From contig JBHIYN010000016.1 in the NCBI GenBank assembly GCA_041984235.1, positions 67,058 through 131,057 on the forward strand: DNA of 64,000 nucleotides, given 5' to 3'. This DNA comes from Gammaproteobacteria bacterium. Lineage in GTDB: Bacteria > Pseudomonadota > Gammaproteobacteria > Ga0077536. The notes under the pieces are model-generated. The model had not been told where the DNA came from and ran no database searches. It saw only the letters and a list, made by a program, of their open reading frames with translations. Position numbers and translations under genes: made by a program. This document shows positions 42,521-64,000 of this stretch, in pieces (position 1 is the stretch's first letter; every line of letters starts with the position of its first letter).

Positions 42521-43678
42521 ATGACCGCCACCCCGCACCTCGAGAGCAAGCTGCCCGACGTCGGCACCACCATCTTCACCGTCATGTCGCAGATGGCGCA
42601 CGAGCACGGTGCGATCAACCTGTCGCAGGGCTATCCCGATTACGACGGTCCGGCACTGCTGCGCGAGCGCCTCGCCTGGTACGCCGGCAACGGCTACAAC
42701 CAGTACGCACCGCTGGCCGGGGTGCCGGCACTGCGCGCCGCCTGTGCGGCCAAGGTCGAGCGCTGCTACGGGCGCGTTACCGACGCCGACAGCGAGATCA
42801 CCGTCACCCCCGGCGCGACCGAGGCCATCTACTGCGCGGTGACCGCGGTGGTGCGCCCGGGCGACGAAGTGATCATGTTCGACCCGGTCTACGACTGCTA
42901 CGACCCGGCCGTGCGCCTGTCGGGCGGGGTGCCGGTGCACCTCACGCTGACCGCGCCCGACTACCGCATCGACTGGGACGCGGTCGAACGTGCGGCCACG
43001 CCGCGCACGCGCGCGATCATGATCAACTCGCCGCACAACCCGACCGGCACGGTGATCGACGGCGACGACCTCGCCGCCCTTACCCGCCTCGCCTGCGCGC
43101 ACGATCTGATCGTGATCTCGGACGAGGTCTACGAGCACCTCGTGTTCGACGGCCGCGAGCACCAGAGCGTGCTGCGCGAGCCGCGCCTGGCGGCCCGCGC
43201 CTTCGCCGTGTTCTCCTTCGGCAAGACCTTCCACGTCACCGGCTGGAAGACCGGCTACGCGGTCGCGCCGCCGACGCTCACCACCGAGCTGCGCCGCGTG
43301 CACCAGTTCGTCGCCTTCGTCGCCTGCACCCCGGTGCAGCACGCGCTGGCCGATTTCATGAACGCCGAGCCCGGCCATATCGACGGCCTGCCGGCTTTCT
43401 ACCAGCGCAAGCGCGACCGCTTCAACGCTGCATTGGCCGGCTCGCGCTTCCGTTTCACGCCGAGTGCCGGCACCTTCTTCCAGCTCGCCGACTACTCGGC
43501 GCTGGACGACCGCGACGACAGAGCTTTCGTCACCTGGCTGACGCAGGAGGTCGGCGTCGCGGCGATCCCGATGTCGGTGTTCTACGCCGAGCCGCCGGAC
43601 GAGCGCTACGTGCGCTTCTGCTTCTGCAAGGAAGACGACACCCTGGATACCGCCGCCACCAAACTCGCCGCCCTGTAG
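42521..43678 (+). CDS. PLP-dependent aminotransferase (YbdL/methionine aminotransferase-like, class I)
   Basis: 385 aa from MTATPHLESKLPDVGTTIFTVMSQMA...SFGKTFHVTGWKTGY (PLP-lysine region). Confidence 0.8.
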   Translation: MTATPHLESKLPDVGTTIFTVMSQMAHEHGAINLSQGYPDYDGPALLRERLAWYAGNGYNQYAPLAGVPALRAACAAKVERCYGRVTDADSEITVTPGATEAIYCAVTAVVRPGDEVIMFDPVYDCYDPAVRLSGGVPVHLTLTAPDYRIDWDAVERAATPRTRAIMINSPHNPTGTVIDGDDLAALTRLACAHDLIVISDEVYEHLVFDGREHQSVLREPRLAARAFAVFSFGKTFHVTGWKTGYAVAPPTLTTELRRVHQFVAFVACTPVQHALADFMNAEPGHIDGLPAFYQRKRDRFNAALAGSRFRFTPSAGTFFQLADYSALDDRDDRAFVTWLTQEVGVAAIPMSVFYAEPPDERYVRFCFCKEDDTLDTAATKLAAL

Positions 43679-53415: not shown

Positions 53416-54996
53416 ATGAACGCAACGGCGAGGCGCGCCCGGCGCTGGGCGCTGGTCAGCGTTTCCGACAAGCGCGGCGTGGTCGAGCTGGCGCAGGCGA
53501 TTGTCGCCGCCGGCATCGGCGTGCTCTCGACCGGCGGCTCCGCGCGCACCCTGCGCGAGGCCGGCATCGAGGTGCGCGACGTCTCCGAGCACACCGGCTT
53601 CGCCGAGATGATGGAAGGGCGGGTCAAGACCCTGCACCCCAAGGTGCACGGCGGCATCCTCGCGCGGCGCGGCACCGACGACGCGGTCATGGCCGAGCAC
53701 GGCATCGAGGCCATCGACCTCGTGGTGGTCAACCTCTATCCCTTCGAGCAGACCATCGCACGGCGTGACTGCACGCTGGACGAGGCCATCGAGAACATCG
53801 ACATCGGCGGCCCCGCGCTGCTGCGCGCCGCGGCCAAGAACCACGCCCACGTCGCCGTGGTCTGCGATCCGGACGATTACCCGCTGGTGATGTCCGAGCT
53901 CGGCAAGTCCGGCGAGGTCGGCGCGGCGACGCGCTATCGCCTGGCGACCAAGGCCTACGCGCACACCGCCCACTACGACGCCGCGATCAGCACGTTTCTG
54001 GCCGCGCGCGGCGCCCGCGATCCGGATGCCTTCCCGCGCCAGCTCGACCTGCGCGTGACCCTGCAGCAGAACCTGCGCTACGGCGAGAACCCGCACCAGC
54101 GCGCCGCCTTCTACGTCGACACCAACCCGCCGCCCGGCACCCTCGCCACCGCGCGCCAGCTGCAGGGCAAGGCGCTCTCCTACAACAACATCGCCGACAC
54201 CGACGCCGCGCTCGACTGCGTGCGCTCGTTCCGCGAGCCGGCGTGCTGCATCGTCAAGCACGCCAACCCCTGCGGCGTGGCCGAGTCGCGTGACCTGGAG
54301 CAGGCCTACGAGCTCGCCTGGGCCACCGATCCGACGTCCGCCTTCGGCGGCATCATCGCTTTCAACCGCCCGCTCGAAGCGGAGCTCGCGCGCACCATCG
54401 TCGAGCGCCAGTTCGTCGAAGTGATCATCGCGCCCGGCGTTACGCCGGAGGCGCTGCAGGCCTGCAGCGTGAAGAAGAACGTGCGCGTGCTGGCGTGCGA
54501 GCCGTGGCCGGCCGAGCCGCTGCGCCAACTCGAGTACAAGCGCGTGATGGGCGGGCTGCTGGTGCAGGACCGCGACTTCGCCGCGCAGACCCTGAGCGCC
54601 GGCTCGCTCAAGACCGTGACCAGACGCAGCCCCGACACCGACGAGCTGCGTGACCTCATCTTCGCCTGGCGCGTGGCCGCCTGCGTCAAGTCGAACGCCA
54701 TCGTCTACGCGCGCAACCGCCAGACCATCGGCATCGGCGCCGGCCAGATGAGCCGCGTCTACAGCGCCCGCATCGCCGGCATCAAGGCCGCCGACGAAGG
54801 CCTCGAAGTGAAAGGCTCGGTGATGGCCTCCGACGCCTTCTTCCCGTTCCGCGACGGCATCGACCAGGCCGCCGAGGCCGGCATTCGCGCGGTGATCCAG
54901 CCGGGTGGATCGATGCGCGACGAAGAGGTGATCGCGGCGGCGGACGAGGCGGGGATGGCGATGGTGTTCACCGGCGAACGCCACTTCCGCCATTGA
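53416..54996 (+). CDS. purH: bifunctional AICAR transformylase/IMP cyclohydrolase
   Basis: 526 aa, [20 protein letters not shown]... Confidence 0.95.
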
Positions 54997-55007
54997 GTGG
55001 CCGCTGA

Positions 55008-55460
55008 CGCGTCTCATGCGGCACAGGGCGGCGTTAATAATCGGCTCGGAATGCTCATGTACTGTTTGTACACTCCGCTTCCTCGCCGATTCTTGCCTTG
55101 CCCTGCACTCGCCTGAGTCACTTCATCGGCCACTCAACGAGCTAATCGATTGTCAGCACGTCTCAGACCGCACATGGCTGCGTTGAAAACCGGCTCGGAA
55201 TGCTCATGTACTGCGTGTACACTCCGCTTCCTCGCCGGTTTTCGCCTTGCCCTGCACGCTCTGAGCCGCACTGACAGCCGATTAGCCGAGTCGCCGCTGA
55301 AGCGTCTCAGTGCGCGCATGGCTGCGTTGAAAACCGACTCGGAATGCTCATGTACTGCGTGTACACTCCGCTTCCTCGCCGGTTTTCGCGTTGCCCTGCA
55401 CGCTCCGAGACGTGCTGACAACCGATTAGCCGAGCCGGCGGTGAGGCGCCTCGTTTCCGT
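55008..55460. repeat. three tandem ~140-160-bp intergenic repeats, each with a 10-bp-stem hairpin (GAAAACCGGC...GCCGGTTTTC)
   Basis: Units start at 55008, 55147 and 55309, each beginning CGTCTCA. Conserved core GGCTCGGAATGCTCATGTACTGCGTGTACACTCCGCTTCCTCGCC. The overlapping predicted ORFs on both strands are repeat artefacts. Confidence 0.7.
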
Positions 55461-55532
55461 AAGTGAAACTATACGGACCGCTACGCCGACACCGGCACCG
55501 CACTGGGTCAACGGGCAGGCGACGGAGCGAGC

Positions 55533-56819
55533 ATGAAAGTTCTCATCATTGGCGGCGGCGGGCGCGAGCATGCGCTGGCCTGGAAGTGCGCGCAGTCGCC
55601 GCTGGCGAGTGAGGTCCTGTGCGCGCCCGGCAACGCCGGCACCGCGCGTGAGGCGAAGGTGCGCAACGTGGACGTCGGCGCTGAGGACGTCGGTGCCTTG
55701 GTCGAGCTCGCCGAGCGCGAGGACGTCGGGCTGACCATCGTCGGACCCGAAGCGCCGCTCGCCGCGGGCGTGGTCGATGCCTTCATGCTCGCCGGCCGGC
55801 GCTGCTTCGGGCCGCCGCAGGCGGCCGCCGTGCTCGAGGCGTCCAAGGCTTACACCAAGGATTTTCTTAAACGCCACGGGATTCCGACCGGCGGCTACGC
55901 GACCTTCGAGGACCTGGACGCCGCGCTGGCGTACATCGAAGCGGGCCCCGAGCGCGTCGTCGTCAAGGCCGACGGCCTCGCCGCCGGCAAGGGCGTGGTG
56001 GTCGCCGCCTCGCGGGAGGAAGCGCAGCAGGCCGCGCGCGCCATGCTCGCCGAGAACAGCTTCGGCGCCGCCGGCAGCCGCATCGTCGTCGAGGAGTTCC
56101 TCGAAGGCGAGGAGGCGAGCTTCATCTGCATGTGCGACGGCGACACCGCGGTGCCGTTCGCCTCGTCCCAGGATCACAAGGCGCGCGACGACGGCGACCG
56201 CGGCCCCAACACCGGCGGCATGGGCGCCTACTCACCGGCGCCGATCGTGGACGAGGCCATGAGCGCACGCATCATGCGCGAGGTCATAGAGCCGACGCTC
56301 GCCGGCATGCGCGCCGACGGCCGGCCCTACCGCGGCTTCCTCTACGCCGGGCTCATGATCGGCGCAGACGGCGTGCCGAAGGTGCTCGAGTTCAACTGCC
56401 GCTTCGGCGATCCCGAGACGCAGCCGATCATGATGCGCCTGAAGACCGATCTCGTCGCCGCCTGCCTCGACCTGCTCGACGGCCGCGCCGCGGGCGTCGA
56501 GCTCGAGTTCGACCCGCGCGCCGCGCTCGGCGTGGTGCTCGCCGCCGGCGGCTACCCCGGCAGCTACGACAAGGGCGCGGTCATCGGCGGGCTGGACGCC
56601 GCGCAGCCGGACACCTACGTCTTCCACGCCGGCACCCGCCTCGAAGGCGAGGACTGCGTCACCGCCGGCGGCCGCGTGCTGTGCGTGGTCGGCCTCGGCG
56701 ACAGCGTCAGCGAAGCACAGGCCCGCGCCTATGCCCGCGTCGACACCATCCACTGGGACGGCATGGTCTGCCGGCGCGACATCGGCTACCGCGCGGTGGC
56801 GCGGGAGCGGGGCTGCTAG
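55533..56819 (+). CDS. purD: phosphoribosylamine-glycine ligase
   Basis: 428 aa, MKVLIIGGGGREHALAWK..., ATP-grasp. Confidence 0.95.
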   Translation: MKVLIIGGGGREHALAWKCAQSPLASEVLCAPGNAGTAREAKVRNVDVGAEDVGALVELAEREDVGLTIVGPEAPLAAGVVDAFMLAGRRCFGPPQAAAVLEASKAYTKDFLKRHGIPTGGYATFEDLDAALAYIEAGPERVVVKADGLAAGKGVVVAASREEAQQAARAMLAENSFGAAGSRIVVEEFLEGEEASFICMCDGDTAVPFASSQDHKARDDGDRGPNTGGMGAYSPAPIVDEAMSARIMREVIEPTLAGMRADGRPYRGFLYAGLMIGADGVPKVLEFNCRFGDPETQPIMMRLKTDLVAACLDLLDGRAAGVELEFDPRAALGVVLAAGGYPGSYDKGAVIGGLDAAQPDTYVFHAGTRLEGEDCVTAGGRVLCVVGLGDSVSEAQARAYARVDTIHWDGMVCRRDIGYRAVARERGC

Positions 56820-56828
56820 GCATCGAGC

Positions 56829-57821
56829 TCAGCGCTGGTCTTGGTCGCGGCGGCCGAGCACCGCCGACAGTGGGCTCTTCACGGCGAGGCCGCCGCGATT
56901 GAGCACATGCGTGTAGATCTGCGTGGTTCGAATATCCCGATGACCCAACTGTTCCTGCACCGTGCGGATATCGGCCCCGCGCTCCAGCAGGTGTGTCGCG
57001 AACGAGTGCCGCAGACTGTGGCAGGTTGCCGGCTTCTCGATTCGCGCGTCGAGAACCGCGCGACGCACCGCCCGTTGCACCCGCTGCTCGTCGAAATGAT
57101 GACGCCGCCGGCGTCCGCTGCGCGGATCGCGGGAGATGCGATCCGCAGGGAACACGTACTGCCAGCTCCACTCCGTTGCTGCGCGCGGATACTTGCGTTC
57201 CAGCGCGAAAGGCAACCACACCTCACCGCAACCGTTGGCGACGTCGCGGTCGAAGACGGTGCGCCGGTCTGCGAGGTGGCGCCGCAACGGCACGATGAGC
57301 TCATCCGGCAGCGTCACGACGCGATCCCGTCCGCCTTTCCCGTCCCGGACGAGGATCGCCCGATGCTCGAAATCCAGATCCTTTACCCGCAAACGAACGC
57401 TCTCCATCAAGCGCAGGCCGGAGCCATACTGCAGGCATGCGATGAGCCAGGCGGCCCGCTCGACGCGCAGCAGCACTTTCGTGACTTCCTCCACGGTGAG
57501 CACTACGGGTAGCCGTTCCGGTCGCTTCGCGCGAACGACGTTCGTCATCTCGTCGAGCGGCCGTTCGAGAACATGACGGTACAGGAAGACGAGGGCATTC
57601 AACGCCTGGTTCTGCGTCGCCGGCGCCACCTTACGTTGCAGCGCAAGGTGGGTGAGGAAGCGCTCGACTTCCGCAGAGCCCATCTCTTCCGGATGCCTGT
57701 TCCCGTGGAACCGGATAAAACGCTTCACCCAGTCGACGTAGCGCTGCTCCGTGCGGATACTGTAGTGGCGCATCCGGATCGCGGCGCGAACCCGCTGCAG
57801 GAATGGCGATGGTGGCGACAC
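56829..57821 (-). CDS. intI: integron integrase (IntI family tyrosine recombinase)
   Basis: 330 aa collinear with IntI1: [39 protein letters not shown], the integron-specific extra segment ALERKYPRA...[14 protein letters not shown], and [15 protein letters not shown] with catalytic Tyr. GTG start. Confidence 0.9.
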
Positions 57822-57894
57822 GTCCCTGTGCGCTCCTCATGGTTTTATCCAAACGTACTGACTGGTCCCGGGAATCGCAACAGTCCGCCAAGCG

Positions 57895-58093
57895 GGCTGC
57901 GCGGATCCACGTCAAATCGACACTTTTTCCCAGAGAACGATGGGAGAAAAGATGACGACGGCTCCAACGCATGCTAGAAAAGAACAAGCCTTTTCAGACA
58001 GTAAAGGCTCCCTCCTCTTCTCCAAGGACGGTCCACCCCATGAACGCAGTTGCGGATCCCCGTCAAATTGACGTGTTAGATCACGTCAGAATG
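57895..58093 (+). other. attI: putative attI integration site
   Basis: Direct repeats TGCGGATCC(A/C)CGTCAAAT(C/T)GAC (57899 and 58031). Core-like GTTAGAT (58055) and GTTAGGC (58087-58093) in the same orientation. Followed immediately by the first cassette. Confidence 0.5.
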
Positions 58094-58135
58094 ACGTCCA
58101 ATTGCTGTTAGGCGGCTAGGATAAGTAGTCTCTTC

Positions 58136-58465
58136 ATGGCGGCCAAAATGGAGATAGTAAGCGAGCCAATTGGAATCGGCTTGCTGATACGTACACCTGG
58201 CCGTTATGCGATGGGCGTCGGCGTAGATGTCCTCAACTTTCTTGACGGGCAACCTGATATTTCTGTGAAGAACACCGGGTGGAAGAATGGCTTTGGTTTG
58301 GACGTTGCGGTTTCACTCCCAATTATTCGCATGGGAAGCCTACTCGCAGAGGTTTCGACCGATGGAGAGGAGTTTCATCTTCTCCGGGCATCTGGGCCAT
58401 ACGAAGAGTTCGCGGATTTGCTCCATCGAGTCGGAAAGTTCCTGGAGGACTACGAACCTCAGTAA
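58136..58465 (+). CDS. cassette 1 ORF: hypothetical protein (109 aa)
   Basis: First ORF after attI GTTAGGC. MAAKMEIVSEPIGIGLLIRTPGRYAMGVGVDVLNFLDG..., no recognisable family. Confidence 0.5.
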   Translation: MAAKMEIVSEPIGIGLLIRTPGRYAMGVGVDVLNFLDGQPDISVKNTGWKNGFGLDVAVSLPIIRMGSLLAEVSTDGEEFHLLRASGPYEEFADLLHRVGKFLEDYEPQ

Positions 58466-58708
58466 GGGCTATGCCGAGTGCGCATAGCGGCCGGCGCAGC
58501 ATGCGTTCTGCTTACACTGACTCGGCGGGGCGAGGGAGCCGCAAGAATCCGGCGGATGAGTGGGCGCCTCGAACGCGCTTCGTCAGTCACGCCACGAATT
58601 CTTCTAAATACGTTTGCGCCAGACTTCGGAACGTAGTGGAATCACTAGATGGGCATAGGCTTCGGAAAGCAGGTCGCAGATCATTTCGTTGAGGTCAGCG
58701 CGGCGCCT

Positions 58709-58812
58709 CCTAACAAAGGGATGGAGCCGACAGTCAAAAGCGACACGCCCTTTGCAAAGAGAAGAGCAAAGGCCGCGCCGCTTTCGCCCGCGGCTCATCC
58801 CGGGCGTTAGGC
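58709..58812 (+). other. attC: attC site 1
   Basis: TCCTAAC...imperfect inverted repeat GGGATGGAGCCG/CGGCTCATCCC...GTTAGGC (58806-58812). Confidence 0.55.
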
Positions 58813-58828
58813 ATCTTAGAGATCTCCT

Positions 58829-59518
58829 GTGCAGCAGCTAGACATCTCAGCGATAATGAGGTGGTCCCAGATTGGGAAGGTGCGATTCCCGTCTTCGGCG
58901 TCCATCATCTGCCCATATTGTGGCGAGAAGGGCGTTTTCTCCCTCACCAACCCAACGGACGACCCGCCGCGTCTAGCGCTTTCGGCAACTGCAGCGTGTC
59001 CAGGTTGCGGAAAACCGGTCCAATTCTGGTCGATACGAACCAAGAAAGCGCCGCCCGGCGATGCAGAAAATCCGATCGCCGTATATTTCTATCCGCCCAT
59101 AGAGAACCATTATCGGGTACCTGAATTCACGACAGATATCCCCGAACCGCTAAGTAGGTCATTCGTTTCGACCATCGATGCATATAACTCAAGAAATTAC
59201 GCAGCTACCGCAGTCTTATGCCGTCGAACGTTAGAAGGGATCTTTAAATATCTTCTGCCCCACGAAAAGCAAGATCTACCGCTTCACAAAGCAGTATCCG
59301 AGGTGCAGAACACTAAAGACCTTGCCGCGCCCTTGAACGCTTTGTCCCATGCAATTAGACAAGGCGGAAATCTTGGTGCGCATTTCGATATGGTCAAAGA
59401 GCCCGATGAGCAACTGGCGAAGAAAATGGTCGCATTACTCGAATATCTGATTACTTATCTCTATGAGTTGCCGGCCGAGATAGAACAAATAGAAAAAAGC
59501 CTAGAAAAAGATGCCTAA
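58829..59518 (+). CDS. cassette 2 ORF: zinc-ribbon plus DUF4145/HEPN-like domain protein (229 aa; start may be ATG 58856)
   Basis: N-terminal CPYCGEKG...CPGCGK. C-terminal segment with RRTLEGIFKYLLP...IRQGGNLGAHFD...LLEYLITYLYEL, matching DUF4145 architecture. Stop TAA embedded in the attC GCCTAAC core. Confidence 0.55.
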   Translation: MQQLDISAIMRWSQIGKVRFPSSASIICPYCGEKGVFSLTNPTDDPPRLALSATAACPGCGKPVQFWSIRTKKAPPGDAENPIAVYFYPPIENHYRVPEFTTDIPEPLSRSFVSTIDAYNSRNYAATAVLCRRTLEGIFKYLLPHEKQDLPLHKAVSEVQNTKDLAAPLNALSHAIRQGGNLGAHFDMVKEPDEQLAKKMVALLEYLITYLYELPAEIEQIEKSLEKDA

Positions 59519-59622
59519 CAAGCGGATCAACCTGACGTGTTACAGCGCGCTTCTCTCCTGCGGCTCCGCATTTTCGCTTCCGAGAAGCGCGCTGTAACAC
59601 GCAGGTTATCCGAGCGTTATAT
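59513..59622 (+). other. attC: attC site 2 (family A, ~110 bp)
   Basis: GCCTAACAAGCGGATCAACCTGACGTGTTACAGCGCGC...GCGCGCTGTAACACGCAGGTTATCCGAGCGTTATAT. Confidence 0.7.
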
Positions 59623-59861
59623 GTCGTGTGGACTAAAGAGCCCTCGAGCAAACGTCAGCGCTGCTGCGATTCCTTTCGTGAATAGAGAAAAGCGGCATCC
59701 GGCGGCTGTCGGCCGCGGCAGCGTAGATGGTGCTTCACCTGATACAACGTCGAGCGGTATCGTCGCAGTGCAGGGACGTCCAGGCCGGTAGTCGTGGCGA
59801 AGCGCCCACTTCCGAAAGGAATCGAGATGTCGTGTAAAGCAGGAACAGAATCCTACCCGCC

Positions 59862-59957
59862 ATATAACAAGGCAATGAAGCTGACGTTTGACCGCGCCTT
59901 CCCTTCGCTACCGCTCCGGTCAGTTGCCGTCAAACGCAGCTTATTGCAGCGTTGGGC
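59862..59957 (+). other. attC: attC site 3 (family B, ~96 bp)
   Basis: ATATAACAAGGCAATGAAGCTGACGTTTGACCGCGCC...CCGGTCAGTTGCCGTCAAACGCAGCTTATTGCAGCGTTGGGC. Confidence 0.6.
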
Positions 59958-59960
59958 GTC

Positions 59961-60326
59961 ATGAAACCACGGAGCATTAATCTGGAGGAGAAGCTTCGGT
60001 TGTTCACGGAGCACTGGACTCCCAAGATCATCGGAGAATTGAACGACTACCAGATTAAGGTGGCCAAGTTCCTCGGAGACTTCGTTTGGCATAGGCACGA
60101 CAACACAGACGAACTGTTCTTGTGCTTATCAGGGAAAATGAAGATCGAACTTCGGGACGGTGCCGTAGAGCTGAGCGAAGGGGAGCTATATATCGTTCCG
60201 AAAGGTGTGGAACACAAACCAGGCGCTACAGAGGAATGTCACGTCCTCCTTATAGAGCCTCGAGGCGTCGTTAATACGGGAAATACGAAGAGCGAACTAA
60301 CGGCGCCCGGGGACACATGGATATGA
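59961..60326 (+). CDS. cassette 4 ORF: small cupin-domain protein (121 aa)
   Basis: Cupin_2-like FVWHRHDNTDELFLCLSGKMKIEL...LYIVPKGVEHKPGA. Stop TGA abuts the attC GCCCAAC. Confidence 0.65.
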   Translation: MKPRSINLEEKLRLFTEHWTPKIIGELNDYQIKVAKFLGDFVWHRHDNTDELFLCLSGKMKIELRDGAVELSEGELYIVPKGVEHKPGATEECHVLLIEPRGVVNTGNTKSELTAPGDTWI

Positions 60327-60327
60327 C

Positions 60328-60422
60328 GCCCAACAAGTCGTTGGAGCGGACGCTTGACCGCTCCCTTCCTTCGCTATCGCTCCAGTCGGTCGCCGTCAAG
60401 CGCCGCTCAACTCTGCGTTAGG
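60328..60422 (+). other. attC: attC site 4 (family B)
   Basis: GCCCAACAAGTCGTTGGAGCGGACGCTTGACCGC...CGGTCGCCGTCAAGCGCCGCTCAACTCTGCGTTAGGC. Confidence 0.7.
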
Positions 60423-60432
60423 CGTATTCGCG

Positions 60433-60855
60433 ATGCCTTCATTCGAATCTCGTGTCGAGCGTCTCTGGACTAATCCTAAGAGAGTCCGTGTATCGGCGCC
60501 ATTCGTTTATTTCATCTCGGTATCCGACGAAAACGGCAATGAGTATCGATATGTCGGCCGAGCCCGGGATAAAAGCCGCCTAGAAGAATACAAACGGAAT
60601 ATGGCTAAGATCCGAGCACGAAAGCCACGAGGTAAAAAGCAAAAATATAGAGCTGTGCATTTCGTACTCTACAAGGCGATAGAGAACGATTGGGACATTG
60701 CGTTTCATCCCTATGAAGAATGTTCAGAGTCCCAGCTCAATGAAGTCGAGAATCGTCTAATTAGCGATCTTGCGTGCAACCTGAATTCGGCAAGCACGTG
60801 GCCGATCGAGAAGCTTTCGACACTGACAATCAAAGAACTACTAGAGAATGCGTAA
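60433..60855 (+). CDS. cassette 5 ORF: small GIY-YIG-like protein (140 aa), putative nuclease
   Basis: FVYFISVSDENGNEYRYVGRARDKSRLEEYKR resembles the GIY-(10-11)-YIG-R spacing. Downstream E...N pattern (ESQLNEVENRLISDLACNLN) resembles the distal GIY-YIG catalytic residues. Confidence 0.4.
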   Translation: MPSFESRVERLWTNPKRVRVSAPFVYFISVSDENGNEYRYVGRARDKSRLEEYKRNMAKIRARKPRGKKQKYRAVHFVLYKAIENDWDIAFHPYEECSESQLNEVENRLISDLACNLNSASTWPIEKLSTLTIKELLENA

Positions 60856-60864
60856 GGAGAATAC

Positions 60865-60974
60865 GCCTAACCAATGGATCAACCGGACGTGTTACAGCGC
60901 GCTTCCCTCCGGCGGCTTCGCATTTTCGCCTCCGCGAAGCGCGCTGTAACACGCCGGTTATCCAAGCGTTAGGC
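60865..60974 (+). other. attC: attC site 5 (family A)
   Basis: GCCTAACCAATGGATCAACCGGACGTGTTACAGCGCGC...GCGCGCTGTAACACGCCGGTTATCCAAGCGTTAGGC. Confidence 0.7.
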
Positions 60975-60980
60975 GCTCAG

Positions 60981-61529
60981 GTGCAACTCGAAACCGCCAT
61001 AAAGATAGTCACGTTCTTCGGAGGGACGGTGGGCGCGATATTCGGGGGTATAGCGCTACGAAACCTGCTTTTCCCAATCAGAATAATTCCTTCTTGGCAG
61101 CGCGTTTTCGACGGATCAGAACCGGACGCTATACAAGCACAAATAGTTAATCTCACGGACAAGCCTCTTGTGCTAGTTGCTTGCTCGGCGAAACCAACTT
61201 ATCGCCTTCGAACAATAATCACCCGACATCTCAAAAACCCGCTCACGCCGCGACGCCTATGGCCGAATATTCACTTCACCTCACAGTCCTTTCTGCTCCT
61301 TAACGAACCACAACGTAGACTCGAAGGAAAAGAGGTATTGGAACTAGAGCATAGGTTGTCGTCACACCCGCTTTCGTTTTTGATGGCGCCAATGTTTATC
61401 GTCGAAGTAACCTTGTCGACCGGACGAAAATTCAGATCACGCCGCATCACTGCGCCTGAGCGATGGCTGTTAATTAACAATCTTGATGAGGCTCGAAATC
61501 ATGATTCCCCGAATCAAACACGCGCCTAA
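60981..61529 (+). CDS. cassette 6 ORF: hypothetical protein with N-terminal TM helix (182 aa)
   Basis: GTG start right after attC 5. IVTFFGGTVGAIFGGIALRNLLF hydrophobic segment. Stop TAA inside the GCCTAAC of attC 6. Confidence 0.45.
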   Translation: MQLETAIKIVTFFGGTVGAIFGGIALRNLLFPIRIIPSWQRVFDGSEPDAIQAQIVNLTDKPLVLVACSAKPTYRLRTIITRHLKNPLTPRRLWPNIHFTSQSFLLLNEPQRRLEGKEVLELEHRLSSHPLSFLMAPMFIVEVTLSTGRKFRSRRITAPERWLLINNLDEARNHDSPNQTRA

Positions 61530-61641
61530 CAAGCGGATCAACCTGACGTGTTACAGCGGGCTTTTCTTACGTGGCTGCGCTATTTTCACTTCAGAAAAGC
61601 CCGCTGTAACACGCAGGTTATCCTGGCGTTGTGCGTCTGTA
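61524..61641 (+). other. attC: attC site 6 (family A)
   Basis: GCCTAACAAGCGGATCAACCTGACGTGTTACAGCGGGC...GCCCGCTGTAACACGCAGGTTATCCTGGCGTTGTGC. Confidence 0.65.
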
Positions 61642-61992
61642 GAGTCCGAGCACCAGCGACCGCCATCGGATCCGAACCTCTGCATGCGAATGGCTGAAGC
61701 CGAGGCTACACTCTGAGCAGGCCCGCGAGGCGAGCCACCGAAACCGAGTAGTCGCCCGAGGTTCAAGGATGAAACATCGCTTCAAAGTTAAAGCGGCGGT
61801 TGGCGAAGTGCGGTTCCAGCCGTTTGCTCGTCAATTACATCCAGGCGAGCATTTCCAAACGCACCATGGTCTTTCAGGTTGTCGAAATCGAGGCGCCGCT
61901 GCTGCCGCGCGGCTGCTGCACCCAGTAGCTGGCCGCACCGCCTCTGGCTTCCTGGCGTGGTCACTAGCCACGGCACATTTCTCAGCGCTGCC

Positions 61993-62102
61993 GCACAACA
62001 AGCGGGTGGAGTCGGACGCATTACAGCGGGCTTCCGCTCCGTGCCTGGCTATTGTCACTCCGCAGAAGCCCGCTGTAATGCGCCGCTCACCCGCGCGTTA
62101 GC
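61993..62102 (+). other. attC: attC site 7 (family A variant)
   Basis: GCACAACAAGCGGGTGGAGTCGGACGCATTACAGCGGGC...GCCCGCTGTAATGCGCCGCTCACCCGCGCGTTAGCG. Confidence 0.6.
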
Positions 62103-62119
62103 GTGATTGGAGGAATCCC

Positions 62120-62788
62120 ATGGCTAAGCCGCACCAAATATTCGTAGGCTGTCCATTTGGCCACCCGATCCGCAGGCATTACGACAAGCTTAAGCGCGAA
62201 GTCGAGAAAGAAACGCCTCTGCATATCGTGTTAGCGGATACGACCGCTGTTTCTTCTACCGATTATCTGCTGGAGCACATTACTAGCCTCATTCGTGACT
62301 CCGCGGGCTGCATCTTCGACGTAACTGGTGGCAATCCGAACGTCTCGCTTGAAGTGGGGATCGCACACGCCCTTCCCGCCGATTTCATTCTCGCTTTCTA
62401 CACGAGGAAAGCCCGAAGCCCTGCAGAGAAAGCACTCGCGGAGCAAGGTGAAACGAAGCCGATCATTTCGGATCTTCAAGGCCGCAACCGAATCGAATAC
62501 AAGCAATTTGCCGCACTTAAATCGCAACTCCTGGATCGCTATCTCACACGACTTCCGTACTACCAGCGGTGGCTGCGATTCAAGAAGTCGAACAGCTCAT
62601 ACGAGAAGTATGCTTTGCGGGTTTTCGATGAAATTAGAGATTCTGGCCGCACCCTGACATCTAGAGCATCGGTCGTGCTATCCGGCTCGGGCATAACTAC
62701 TTCCGACTTCGCGAAGGCACTCACGAAAGAGCGCCTAGTCACTATCAAATCGGGAAGGCAGGGTGGCTGGTATTACCCATCACGCTAA
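62120..62788 (+). CDS. cassette 8 ORF: nucleoside 2-deoxyribosyltransferase/TIR-fold-like protein (222 aa)
   Basis: IFVGCPFGH N-terminus and DVTGGNPNVSLEVGIAHALPADFILAF, which resembles the NDT-family D.G...E.G.A.A nucleotide-binding/catalytic segment. Plus a ~100-aa basic C-terminal extension. Stop TAA inside the attC CGCTAAC. Confidence 0.45.
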   Translation: MAKPHQIFVGCPFGHPIRRHYDKLKREVEKETPLHIVLADTTAVSSTDYLLEHITSLIRDSAGCIFDVTGGNPNVSLEVGIAHALPADFILAFYTRKARSPAEKALAEQGETKPIISDLQGRNRIEYKQFAALKSQLLDRYLTRLPYYQRWLRFKKSNSSYEKYALRVFDEIRDSGRTLTSRASVVLSGSGITTSDFAKALTKERLVTIKSGRQGGWYYPSR

Positions 62789-62878
62789 CAAACTGGTCAA
62801 CCGGACGCTTGACCGCTGGCTTCCTTCGCTACCGCTCCGGTCGCCAGCCGTCAAGCGCCGGTTACCAGAGCGTTAGAT
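62783..62878 (+). other. attC: attC site 8 (family B)
   Basis: CGCTAACAAACTGGTCAACCGGACGCTTGACCGC...CCGGTCGCCAGCCGTCAAGCGCCGGTTACCAGAGCGTTAGAT. Confidence 0.7.
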
Positions 62879-62885
62879 TGCAGTA

Positions 62886-63521
62886 ATGAGCTCGGTACTC
62901 AGCTTTGCGCTCTTCTTGTTAATCGGAGTCGTCTTCGGAAAAATAATTGTCTCCGTTGTTAACCTCATGCGAGGTCGACGGAGTACAGCCACCATGGCAT
63001 CCGACGCAGATGTTGCAGCAAACTTGGAACAACGACGCATCAATAACGCGATTGCGGACGCGTCGAACTTGTCCGACGAGCAATACGATGCGGCGCTCGA
63101 CGAGTTCGTCATCCCGTACGAGAACGCTGCGAATTATTTGGTCATAGATTGGCGAGAAGAAGACGATAAAGTCGTGGCAGCCTGCAGGAACGCTCTACTA
63201 GATGGATCTCAGGCCGAACTCAAATTTACATCTGTCGAGAACGATGATCATTGCTCTGCGACAGGCATCCTTAAGTATGGTGACAGATCTCTAGAAATAG
63301 AGATCCCTTTCTCACATAAAAGCCGATACATCCTATTAAGAGCAGTTAATCAAATTCTCTCGCCAGATTACGAAATCCGGCTGATTCGTCACTCCTTGGG
63401 CGGTGACACACATGAATTTATGCTCTTCTCCAGACAACAATGGAGCGAGATACAGAAAACAAGTGAACAATTAGTCAACGGATTGTTCGTCCCACTAACG
63501 GAACCGGTAGATTTCGAGTGA
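62886..63521 (+). CDS. cassette 9 ORF: hypothetical membrane-anchored protein (211 aa)
   Basis: N-terminal TM helix LSFALFLLIGVVFGKIIVSVV, then an acidic soluble domain. No recognisable family. Confidence 0.45.
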   Translation: MSSVLSFALFLLIGVVFGKIIVSVVNLMRGRRSTATMASDADVAANLEQRRINNAIADASNLSDEQYDAALDEFVIPYENAANYLVIDWREEDDKVVAACRNALLDGSQAELKFTSVENDDHCSATGILKYGDRSLEIEIPFSHKSRYILLRAVNQILSPDYEIRLIRHSLGGDTHEFMLFSRQQWSEIQKTSEQLVNGLFVPLTEPVDFE

Positions 63522-63535
63522 TCACCGGGATCTGC

Positions 63536-63633
63536 AATCTAACAAATCGTTCAACCGGACGCTTGACTGCCCGCTCCCTGCGCTGCCGCTCCGGTCGCGG
63601 TCCGTCAAGCGCCGGTTAACAGAAGCGTTGGGC
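63536..63633 (+). other. attC: attC site 9 (family B)
   Basis: ATCTAACAAATCGTTCAACCGGACGCTTGACTGC...CGGTCGCGGTCCGTCAAGCGCCGGTTAACAGAAGCGTTGGGC. Confidence 0.7.
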
Positions 63634-63981
63634 GTCAGCGGACACCGATTTTTCGGAACCAGGCAGCGCGAGCCAGTAAGGGCATCGCTTCACCACAAAC
63701 GCGGTGCAGGCTCGGTCGAAGCGCCGTGCCCGTCCGAGAGGCGGCCCGCCGAATCGGGTTTGCAGGATAGGAGCGAAGGCGTAGGCTTCAAGTCGTGACC
63801 CCGACGCAGCCGGGGTGGGGAAGGATCTTCTCGAGTCAGGGACAGGCACGTGCCGGGGAGTCATTGGAGTGATTGTTGCTGAACTTAGGCCGCATGTGTC
63901 GAGCTGCCGTGCCAGCCTGGTCGCTCGGCACAGCACCGTAGAGTGCCCGCAGCACAGCCATTGGTTCTCAAAGGCCGAGAC

Positions 63982-64000
63982 ACCCAACAAGTTGTTGGAG
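63982..64000 (+). other. attC: start of attC site 10 (family B; truncated by window end)
   Basis: ACCCAACAAGTTGTTGGAG matches the 5' end of attC 4 (GCCCAACAAGTCGTTGGAG). Confidence 0.5.

Follow-up and report, generated by a model that had tools for sequence, protein, structure and literature searches.

Why does a single chromosomal integron carry two kinds of attC recombination site side by side? In the sedentary chromosomal arrays of Vibrio (the VCR superintegron), Xanthomonas and Pseudomonas, one highly similar attC type dominates. The question is raised by an integron in a stretch of 64,000 nucleotides from an uncultured gammaproteobacterium (contig JBHIYN010000016.1, hereafter the window), which consists of a reverse-strand integrase gene (intI), an attI region and an array of cassettes that runs beyond the end of the window. 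A preliminary description of the window had sorted attC sites 2, 5, 6 and 7 and attC sites 3, 4, 8, 9 and 10 into two sequence families, here called A and B, and had suggested cassette recruitment from two donor pools, or an integrase with relaxed recognition, as the reason for the mixture. From the analysis below, it is probable that the integron is inherited vertically with the chromosome and draws its cassettes, one by one, from a clade-wide pool in which several attC lineages circulate.

Two attC families in one array

The sites were confirmed with a covariance model, R1, trained on the nine that are complete in the window; searching the 64-kb window with it returned exactly those nine, and the next match had E=0.81. 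The model replaced a home-made palindrome scanner, which had missed attC1 and attC4, misplaced one boundary and given a false match at 43658. All sites lie on the forward strand, and their coordinates run from R'' to R'. Family A is represented by attC2 (59513-59622, 110 nt), which closes cassette 2 (58807-59616; a DUF4145 protein), attC5 (60865-60974, 110 nt; cassette 5, 60418-60968), attC6 (61524-61634, 111 nt; cassette 6, 60969-61628) and attC7 (61993-62103, 111 nt; cassette 7, 61629-62097). To family B belong attC3 (59862-59957, 96 nt), closing cassette 3 (59617-59951), attC4 (60328-60423, 96 nt; cassette 4, 59952-60417, encoding a cupin), attC8 (62783-62878, 96 nt; cassette 8, 62098-62872), attC9 (63537-63633, 97 nt; cassette 9, 62873-63627) and attC10, which is cut by the window end after its first 19 nt (63982-64000). 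The first site, attC1 (58708-58812, 105 nt, 67.7 bits with R1; cassette 1, 58108-58806), is the only member here of a third family, C. The two families stand, and the first site falls outside both. The length of about 96 nt given earlier for family B agrees with these measurements, whereas the 110-118 nt given for family A narrows to 110-111 nt.

The array could be followed further on contig JBHIVR010000054.1 (assembly GCA_041987945.1), which is identical to the window over 17,172 nt (loci L065 and L067). There attC10 is complete, with 98 nt, and is followed by seven more sites (B, A, A, A, A, B and A), which brings the number of attC sites to 17 before the contig stops, at window-equivalent 69657. 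Since it stops within the array, the size of the array is at least 17 cassettes. From first to last, the 17 sites are C A B B A A A B B B B A A A A B A, with nine A, seven B and one C. The families had been called alternating; they are interleaved instead: a random order would give 8.9 +/- 1.9 runs, and 7 are observed (P(<=7)=0.23). The order of A and B is random, neither strictly alternating nor blocked.

The cassette boundaries are well marked. When the 7-nt R' of each attC is compared with the R'' of the attC that follows, the two are perfect reverse complements at 15 of the 16 junctions, and at the sixteenth 6 of 7 positions agree; this holds equally across A-to-B, B-to-A, A-to-A and B-to-B junctions. 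Such complementarity indicates that the cassettes were once circles cut at G|TT. In all 17 sites R'' ends in AAC and R' starts with GTT, and several open reading frames (ORFs) stop at the TAA of R'' (e.g., 59516-59518 and 62786-62788). The mixture might in principle have been created by mis-assembly of metagenomic reads through the attC repeats that the cassettes share. The contig that extends the array is of the type found in metagenome-assembled genomes (MAGs) and ends inside the array, and independent contigs break inside attC sites. However, the complementarity is unbroken at every junction, and the Logan assemblies of three separate runs (SRR30684385, SRR32696346 and SRR32696358) reproduce the window at 56665-59542 and 61529-64023 with 100% identity, the latter stretch covering attC6 (A), attC7 (A), attC8 (B), attC9 (B) and attC10 (B). 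The agreement of the three runs shows that the A/B junctions are not assembly artefacts, and mis-assembly is exceedingly improbable as the source of the mixture.

Folding of the bottom strands, which had been proposed as a check, gave canonical long hairpins for 17 of 17 sites. Each site is an imperfect palindrome with its extrahelical bases on the R''-L'' side of the bottom strand, and compensatory changes are seen in 16 of the 29 consensus pairs of the nine-site alignment. The extrahelical bases follow the variant of the L box rather than the family. The alpha variant (L' GGTTA) has an extrahelical G and T, 6 bp apart, and is found in attC2, where the spacing is likewise 6 bp, and in attC5, attC6, attC8 and attC9. 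The beta variant (L' GCTCA; extrahelical C and T) is that of attC4, and the beta-prime variant (L' GCTCA; extrahelical C, A and T) that of attC7, with its three extrahelical bases, and of attC10. The gamma variant (L' GCTTA; extrahelical C and T) is found in attC3. As all four variants occur in both A and B, the variation of the outer arms is independent of the family.

Are A and B really two families, or length variants of a single attC consensus? In the window, identity is 70-87% within A (sites 2, 5, 6 and 7), 70-80% within B (sites 3, 4, 8 and 9) and 56-68% between A and B, and attC1 is 49-58% identical to all the others. Over the 17 sites the mean pairwise identity is 0.67, as against 0.81-0.85 in the single-family arrays of the data set. 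For a broader comparison, 282 full-length attCs from contig JBHIVR010000054.1 and from other genomes were clustered on the sequence between R'' and R' by average linkage at a distance of 0.40. Every window site was placed as in the preliminary description, with an A cluster of 84 members (108-111 nt) and a B cluster of 122 members (95-98 nt); attC1 joined a single relative, a site of MAG SJ809 (L009:127-231, 76%). The mean distance is 0.28 within A, 0.25 within B and 0.45 between them.

The length-variant explanation draws on several features. The outer R''/L'' and L'/R' arms are common to A and B, as TCAACCKGACG...CGCMGGTTA or as TGGAGYSGGACG...CGCCGCTCA. When the cut is raised to 0.45, A and B join each other before either joins the 117-, 86-, 129- or 69-nt types of other genomes. 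The stem of attC11, a B site, is A-like (GACAGC/GCTGTC). Finally, attC13 (A; L067:13481-13591, window-equivalent 66366-66476) and attC16 (B; L067:15421-15517, window-equivalent 68306-68402) have outer arms that are 95% identical (36/38 nt) below different inner hairpins, the top value among 10,248 A-B comparisons, of which the runner-up reaches 0.87. Against it, the lengths are bimodal, the A and B clusters stay apart across more than 25 genomes, and even the closest A-B pair is 29% different (distance 0.29), more than the mean distance within either family. The apices are also distinct, GGCTTCGCATTTTCGC in family A (about 110 nt) and CTTCGCTRCCGCTCCGGTCG in family B (about 96 nt), and each is conserved about as well as the R box across genomes of different orders, with the stem directly below it free to vary. 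On account of these apices, A and B are to be regarded, by their sequences, as two families, and it is very unlikely that they are length variants of one consensus. The preliminary description had named such length variation, with shared inner repeats, as the result that would speak against it; of this, the shared arms and the first merging at 0.45 were found, but not a common inner hairpin. The two families are, by the same comparison, related to each other.

The attC13/attC16 pair has the appearance of a mosaic and suggests modular exchange or gene conversion between attCs. A general homogenisation of A and B outer arms within genomes was considered and is not supported, the values being 0.56 within and 0.58 between genomes. 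Other structural details may be recorded here. What has been called a variable terminal structure is not variable inside a family, for example at window 59560-59580 and 60372-60392, and CTTCGC occurs in both the A and the B apex (GCGAAG on the bottom strand). A one-by-one mismatch is conserved in family B, eight pairs in from the extrahelical T; it appears as GACCGC/GCCGTC on the top strand and as G.G on the bottom strand, and is located at window 59890-59895/59930-59935 and at the equivalent places of attC4, attC8 and attC9. In attC9 it is A/G, and in attC11 an A-T restores the pair.

Distribution of the families and source of the cassettes

Where else do the families occur? A degenerate two-arm pattern, which matches 8 of the 8 A and B sites of the window with 0.00 matches expected by chance, gave 84 matches in 64 loci of a collection of species-representative genomes, and 99 stretches of metagenome contigs. 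The hosts are mostly uncultured Gammaproteobacteria and include Methylococcales, Chromatiaceae, Thiothrix, Granulosicoccaceae and Methylohalomonas lacus; the pattern was also found in Nitrosomonas marina (B), N. mobilis (A) and a MAG of Burkholderiales. A search for the taxa of each family had been suggested; it shows both to be carried by two Nitrosomonas species and by dozens of Gammaproteobacteria from the environment.

The composition of single genomes was then determined by running R1 on the loci found with the pattern. Some are nearly pure, with 35 A, 3 B and 3 unclustered sites in CAXXLL and 15 A, no B and 1 unclustered site in OZ244144, or entirely B, with 32 sites in JACKNG and 15 in JBFXAQ and no others in either. 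Others are mixed like the genome of the window (9 A, 7 B, 1 C), with 14 A, 9 B and no other site in LOGT_bin.0044. A MAG of Methylococcales has no A, 23 B, 29 sites of 117 nt, 9 of 86 nt and 1 unclustered. Arrays in which A and B are interleaved were found in at least four other MAGs, LOGT_bin.0044, LejiaC_64_15, Co_bin.12 and SJ809, the last with A, B and C. Among metagenome contigs with at least two attCs, 16 are pure B, 2 pure A and 6 mixed; 6 of the 10 multi-attC contigs that have an A site also have B, and adjacent pairs are BB in 36 cases, AB in 8 and AA in 4. The expectation that a chromosomal array should have one species-specific attC type is true of large Vibrio-type arrays, but mixed arrays are common in this data set. 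In the Methylococcales MAG CBDCZN (L008, L013, L021, L025, L028, L044, L049 and L060), three families are interleaved: sites of 117 nt, which are very uniform (mean distance 0.08), sites of 86 nt, and B sites of 96 nt.

Of the 17 attCs, 13 are more similar to a site of another genome or metagenome than to any in their own array; attC6, for example, is 95% identical to a site of LOGT_bin.0044 (L033:7576-7686). A further case is attC10 (window 63982-64000 plus L067:11097-11194), which is 100% identical over 91 nt, from AAC to GTTAG, to a site on metagenome contig Ga0070727_10081727 (L095:252-349), although the cassette bodies on either side are unrelated and the first four bases of R'' differ.

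These distributions bear on the idea of two donors, according to which the mixture results from recent import from two foreign lineages, one A-type and one B-type. In favour of this idea, some genomes have almost only A (CAXXLL, OZ244144) or only B (JACKNG, JBFXAQ), most attCs have their closest relative elsewhere, and the cassette bodies, with 47-64% G+C, differ from the host with its 70%. However, a low G+C content is no mark of recent import, because the deficit is general: arrays lie 10-18 points below the flanking chromosome in every genome examined (L004, L005, L025, L036, L043 and the window), with extremes of 0.34 versus 0.45 in a Methylococcales MAG and 0.52 versus 0.70 in the window. 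The A and B cassettes of the array overlap in G+C (means 0.50 and 0.55) without a clear difference, their order shows no blocks, and mixed arrays are already present in relatives that carry the integron at this locus. Furthermore, no cassette was found to be common to the window and its putative donors. When all 17 cassettes were compared with about 170 loci by tblastn and blastn, the only matches were loci chosen for their DUF4145 genes and one nucleotide match of about 70%, that of a partly assembled 18th cassette to LOGT_bin.0044 and to one metagenome contig. Specific donors cannot be named, and both families are present in relatives of the host. Recent import from two foreign donors is unlikely, and the mixture of A and B is, as far as the compared genomes indicate, a trait of the integron lineage.

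Two further observations concern composition and content. B-type attCs hold about 55-60% G+C even in a low-G+C host. A link between gene family and attC family was sought through DUF4145 and is absent at the distance covered: homologues of the cassette 2 protein are at most 62% identical to it and their contexts differ, the one of Pseudomonas jilinensis being in a cassette with 57- and 69-nt attCs, and those of Sinimarinibacterium flocculans and of two Logan contigs having no attC.

Could the families instead be made in place, by a templated creation of cassettes from two or more master attC sequences? Local cassette creation has been raised as a possible cause of homogeneous attCs (Cury et al., 2016, PMC4889954). 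Apices as conserved as the R box beside a varying stem, the attC10 core on an unrelated cassette body in L095 and the mosaic of attC13 and attC16 all fit such an origin. On the other hand, no candidate machinery or template was found. Hosts of the two families span 45% to 70% G+C and include Betaproteobacteria, a range more easily explained by spread than by synthesis in place. The conservation of the apices could equally reflect a need of folding or a bound factor. Creation in place is therefore quite unlikely as the source of the families. The more specific notion that the nearly invariant apices, the attC10/L095 core and the attC13/attC16 arms are footprints of a cassette-creating process, with master templates and with separable arms and hairpin, is very doubtful; the three observations are compatible with modular or templated formation, and also with functional constraint plus occasional gene conversion. 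If it were true, this clade would offer a natural system for studying the origin of cassettes.

Probable inheritance of the integron at the purH-purD locus

The surroundings of the integron bear on the reading preferred here, a vertically inherited integron fed from a shared pool. The genes upstream of purD and intI are ordered accB-accC-prmA-dusB-fis-purH. purH (53416-54996) precedes purD (55533-56819, forward strand), which encodes phosphoribosylamine-glycine ligase (TIGR00877, 544 bits versus a cutoff of 288) and is the chromosomal gene that abuts the integron. Only 10 bp after purD, on the opposite strand, lies the end of intI (56829-57821), which is thus convergent with purD and divergent from the array. 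Its product of 330 amino acids scores 479 bits against the integron integrase model TIGR02249 (cutoff 265), covering profile positions 1-314 of 315, contains PF13495 and PF00589, and stays far under the cutoffs of the XerC and XerD models. By these scores, it is an integron-type tyrosine recombinase, distinct from XerC/D, and with intI, attI and attC cassettes the integron is complete as judged from its sequence. Up to 57 kb the window has about 70% G+C, and from 58 kb on 52-56%.

The same order and orientation of purH, purD, reverse-strand intI and array are found in LOGT_bin.0044 (L036) and Co_bin.12 (L005), both with A+B arrays. In these syntenic loci (L036:5454-7686 and L005:2105-4617, versus window 55533-57821), PurD is 78-80% identical to that of the window and IntI 58-60%. 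Among the nearest relatives by PurH are the MAG JBFXAQ (82%, on the same 355,678-bp contig as L050), LOGT_bin.0044 (75%, CALOBG010000051.1) and a 5.7-Mb genome (L073, 74%); these relatives include genomes with A or B arrays. From the conserved purH-purD-intI order, the integron appears to have been inherited at a fixed chromosomal locus in this clade, and its relatives there already have A+B arrays.

A course of events can be proposed on this basis. The purH-purD locus, the reverse-strand intI, the attI and the array of at least 17 cassettes would form a sedentary chromosomal integron of an uncultured gammaproteobacterium with about 70% G+C. Cassettes would be inserted singly at attI through IntI recombination at G|TT, and would be drawn from a pool that environmental Gammaproteobacteria of one clade have in common, with the long-lived families A, B and C and others. 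The hairpins of all families are of one kind on the bottom strand, made up of an R box, an L box that has two or three extrahelical bases, and a long stem. A structure-reading integrase may therefore handle them alike, and successive independent insertions would lead to random interleaving. A relaxed integrase, one of the earlier suggestions, would not be needed for this, since reading the folded structure is a normal property of integron integrases, as Ghaly et al. (2024, PMC11089894) state with reference to Nivina 2020 and MacDonald 2006; the same study documents transfer of cassettes across species. The IntI of the window presumably recombines every family, and cassettes presumably move between genomes.

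Several points weigh against this account. The activity of IntI on each family is presumed. The cassette bodies are essentially unique, so that transfer between genomes is suggested by the distribution of attCs. The loci were chosen by a match to A or B and R1 was trained on A, B and C, so that the proportions above are biased toward these families, and the composition of the array covers 17 sites only because the contig end cuts it. Lastly, strict vertical inheritance of the integrase is not certain, because the syntenic IntI proteins are so much more divergent than PurD and the closest ones, 73-77% identical, are located in other contexts (L072-L075). Either IntI diverges fast or it was replaced at the fixed purD locus. 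Of these close relatives, that of L073 is accompanied by a homogeneous 69-nt attC array, that of L074 (73% identical) by A-type sites interrupted by insertion sequences (ISs), and those of L072 and L075 by no attC. The difference of contexts implies that attC families do not simply track the integrase lineage.

How does this integron compare with known systems? Like the sedentary integrons of V. cholerae, Xanthomonas and Pseudomonas, it has intI, attI and an array at a conserved locus, promoterless cassettes mostly of unknown function, and an array G+C below that of the host. Cury and colleagues reportedly used about 20 attC sites as a working threshold for such integrons, and 17 were counted here before the contig end. 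A chromosomal location conserved in relatives is seen in the window and in L036 and L005. Homogeneous, host-specific attCs are not: unlike in Vibrio-type arrays, there are two co-dominant families plus a third, and the main two are shared with many taxa. In having neighbouring cassettes with unrelated attC types, which one integrase would recognise by structure, the array resembles those of mobile class 1-type integrons; unlike them, it is chromosomal and syntenic, no transposon context was seen around it, and its attCs fall into a few large conserved families instead of many unrelated ones. The attC of the aadA7 cassette, the standard site in experiments, has an L-box arrangement of the TCAAGCCGACG...CGGCTTAAC type, as in A and B. 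On its bottom strand an extrahelical G is separated by about 6 bp from an extrahelical T, and its apex likewise contains CTTCGC, but the whole site has about 60 nt and a tiny terminal loop. A and B differ from it in that their stems are extended and their apices consist of 16-20 nt of conserved sequence.

Two lines of earlier work put the mixture into perspective. The larger an array, the more similar its attCs tend to be, and most arrays with heterogeneous sites are small (Cury et al., 2016, PMC4889954). In addition, attC types are conserved within taxa yet cluster by environment and not by host phylogeny, which was argued to aid exchange between unrelated hosts, and covariance models have been published for the attCs of 11 taxa including Methylococcales (Ghaly et al., 2021, PMC8352920). 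The families described here agree with these studies (PMC8352920, PMC11089894) in that each attC type occurs in many genomes and integrons would serve as sites of exchange across species. They differ from taxon-bound types, as B is found in Methylococcales MAGs but also in high-G+C Gammaproteobacteria and in Nitrosomonas and is not specific to one order.

Judged by its sequence, then, this is an ordinary chromosomal integron, and its mixed set of attCs is typical of its clade. It is mildly unusual in that two conserved families are co-dominant in a chromosomal array with conserved synteny and no fewer than 17 cassettes. The integron reveals no new mechanism. Its value lies elsewhere. The textbook view of chromosomal integrons rests on Vibrio-type arrays with uniform attCs, and in this lineage two families are co-dominant. 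It can also serve to calibrate calls of cassette origin that are based on attCs, as the attC type here would mark a clade-wide pool and not a species. Moreover, families A, B and C, with three L-box/extrahelical geometries, make up a natural set of substrates for measuring the tolerance of integrases.

The attI region and minor observations

The attI region (57822-58113, forward strand) lies between intI and cassette 1. Its crossover GTT (58107-58109), the first GTT crossover of the integron, is part of GTTAGGC (58107-58113), which agrees at 6 of 7 positions with the reverse complement of the R'' of attC1 (TCCTAAC). The region contains four palindromic 14-mers similar to CGTCAAATTGACG, starting at 57910, 58061, 58084 and 58095, the last of which adjoins the crossover, and a 21-nt direct repeat, GCGGATCCNCGTCAAATYGAC, at 57901 and 58052. 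These repeats (57901-58108) are possible binding sites of IntI. The segment 58063-58085 looks like the 5' arm of family A (TCAA..TGACGTGTTA). A simple sigma-70 scan of 57700-58300, which is crude and covers this promoter type only, gave no Pc promoter, and a terminator scan of the attI region found nothing. In an Rfam scan of 54500-64000, the attC stems gave sub-threshold noise from miRNA hairpins, and there was nothing else.

The gap between purH and purD holds three tandem units at 55010-55446, each of about 144-149 nt and 68-90% identical to one another, which had no match in Rfam. CTCGGAATGCTCATGTACTG is present in each unit and nowhere else in the window.

In L074 (1-9800), the array is split by repeated IS copies with rve-family and HTH_Tnp_1 genes, several attC matches are shortened to the inner stem, and some cassettes are ParE- and antitoxin-like.

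Cassettes 3, 7 and 10 of the window (59617-59951, 61629-62097 and 63628-64000) are short (335-469 nt), with a higher G+C content (0.58-0.64) and without a convincing forward ORF, the longest ORF of cassette 10 being on the reverse strand. These cassettes may be gene-less or regulatory.

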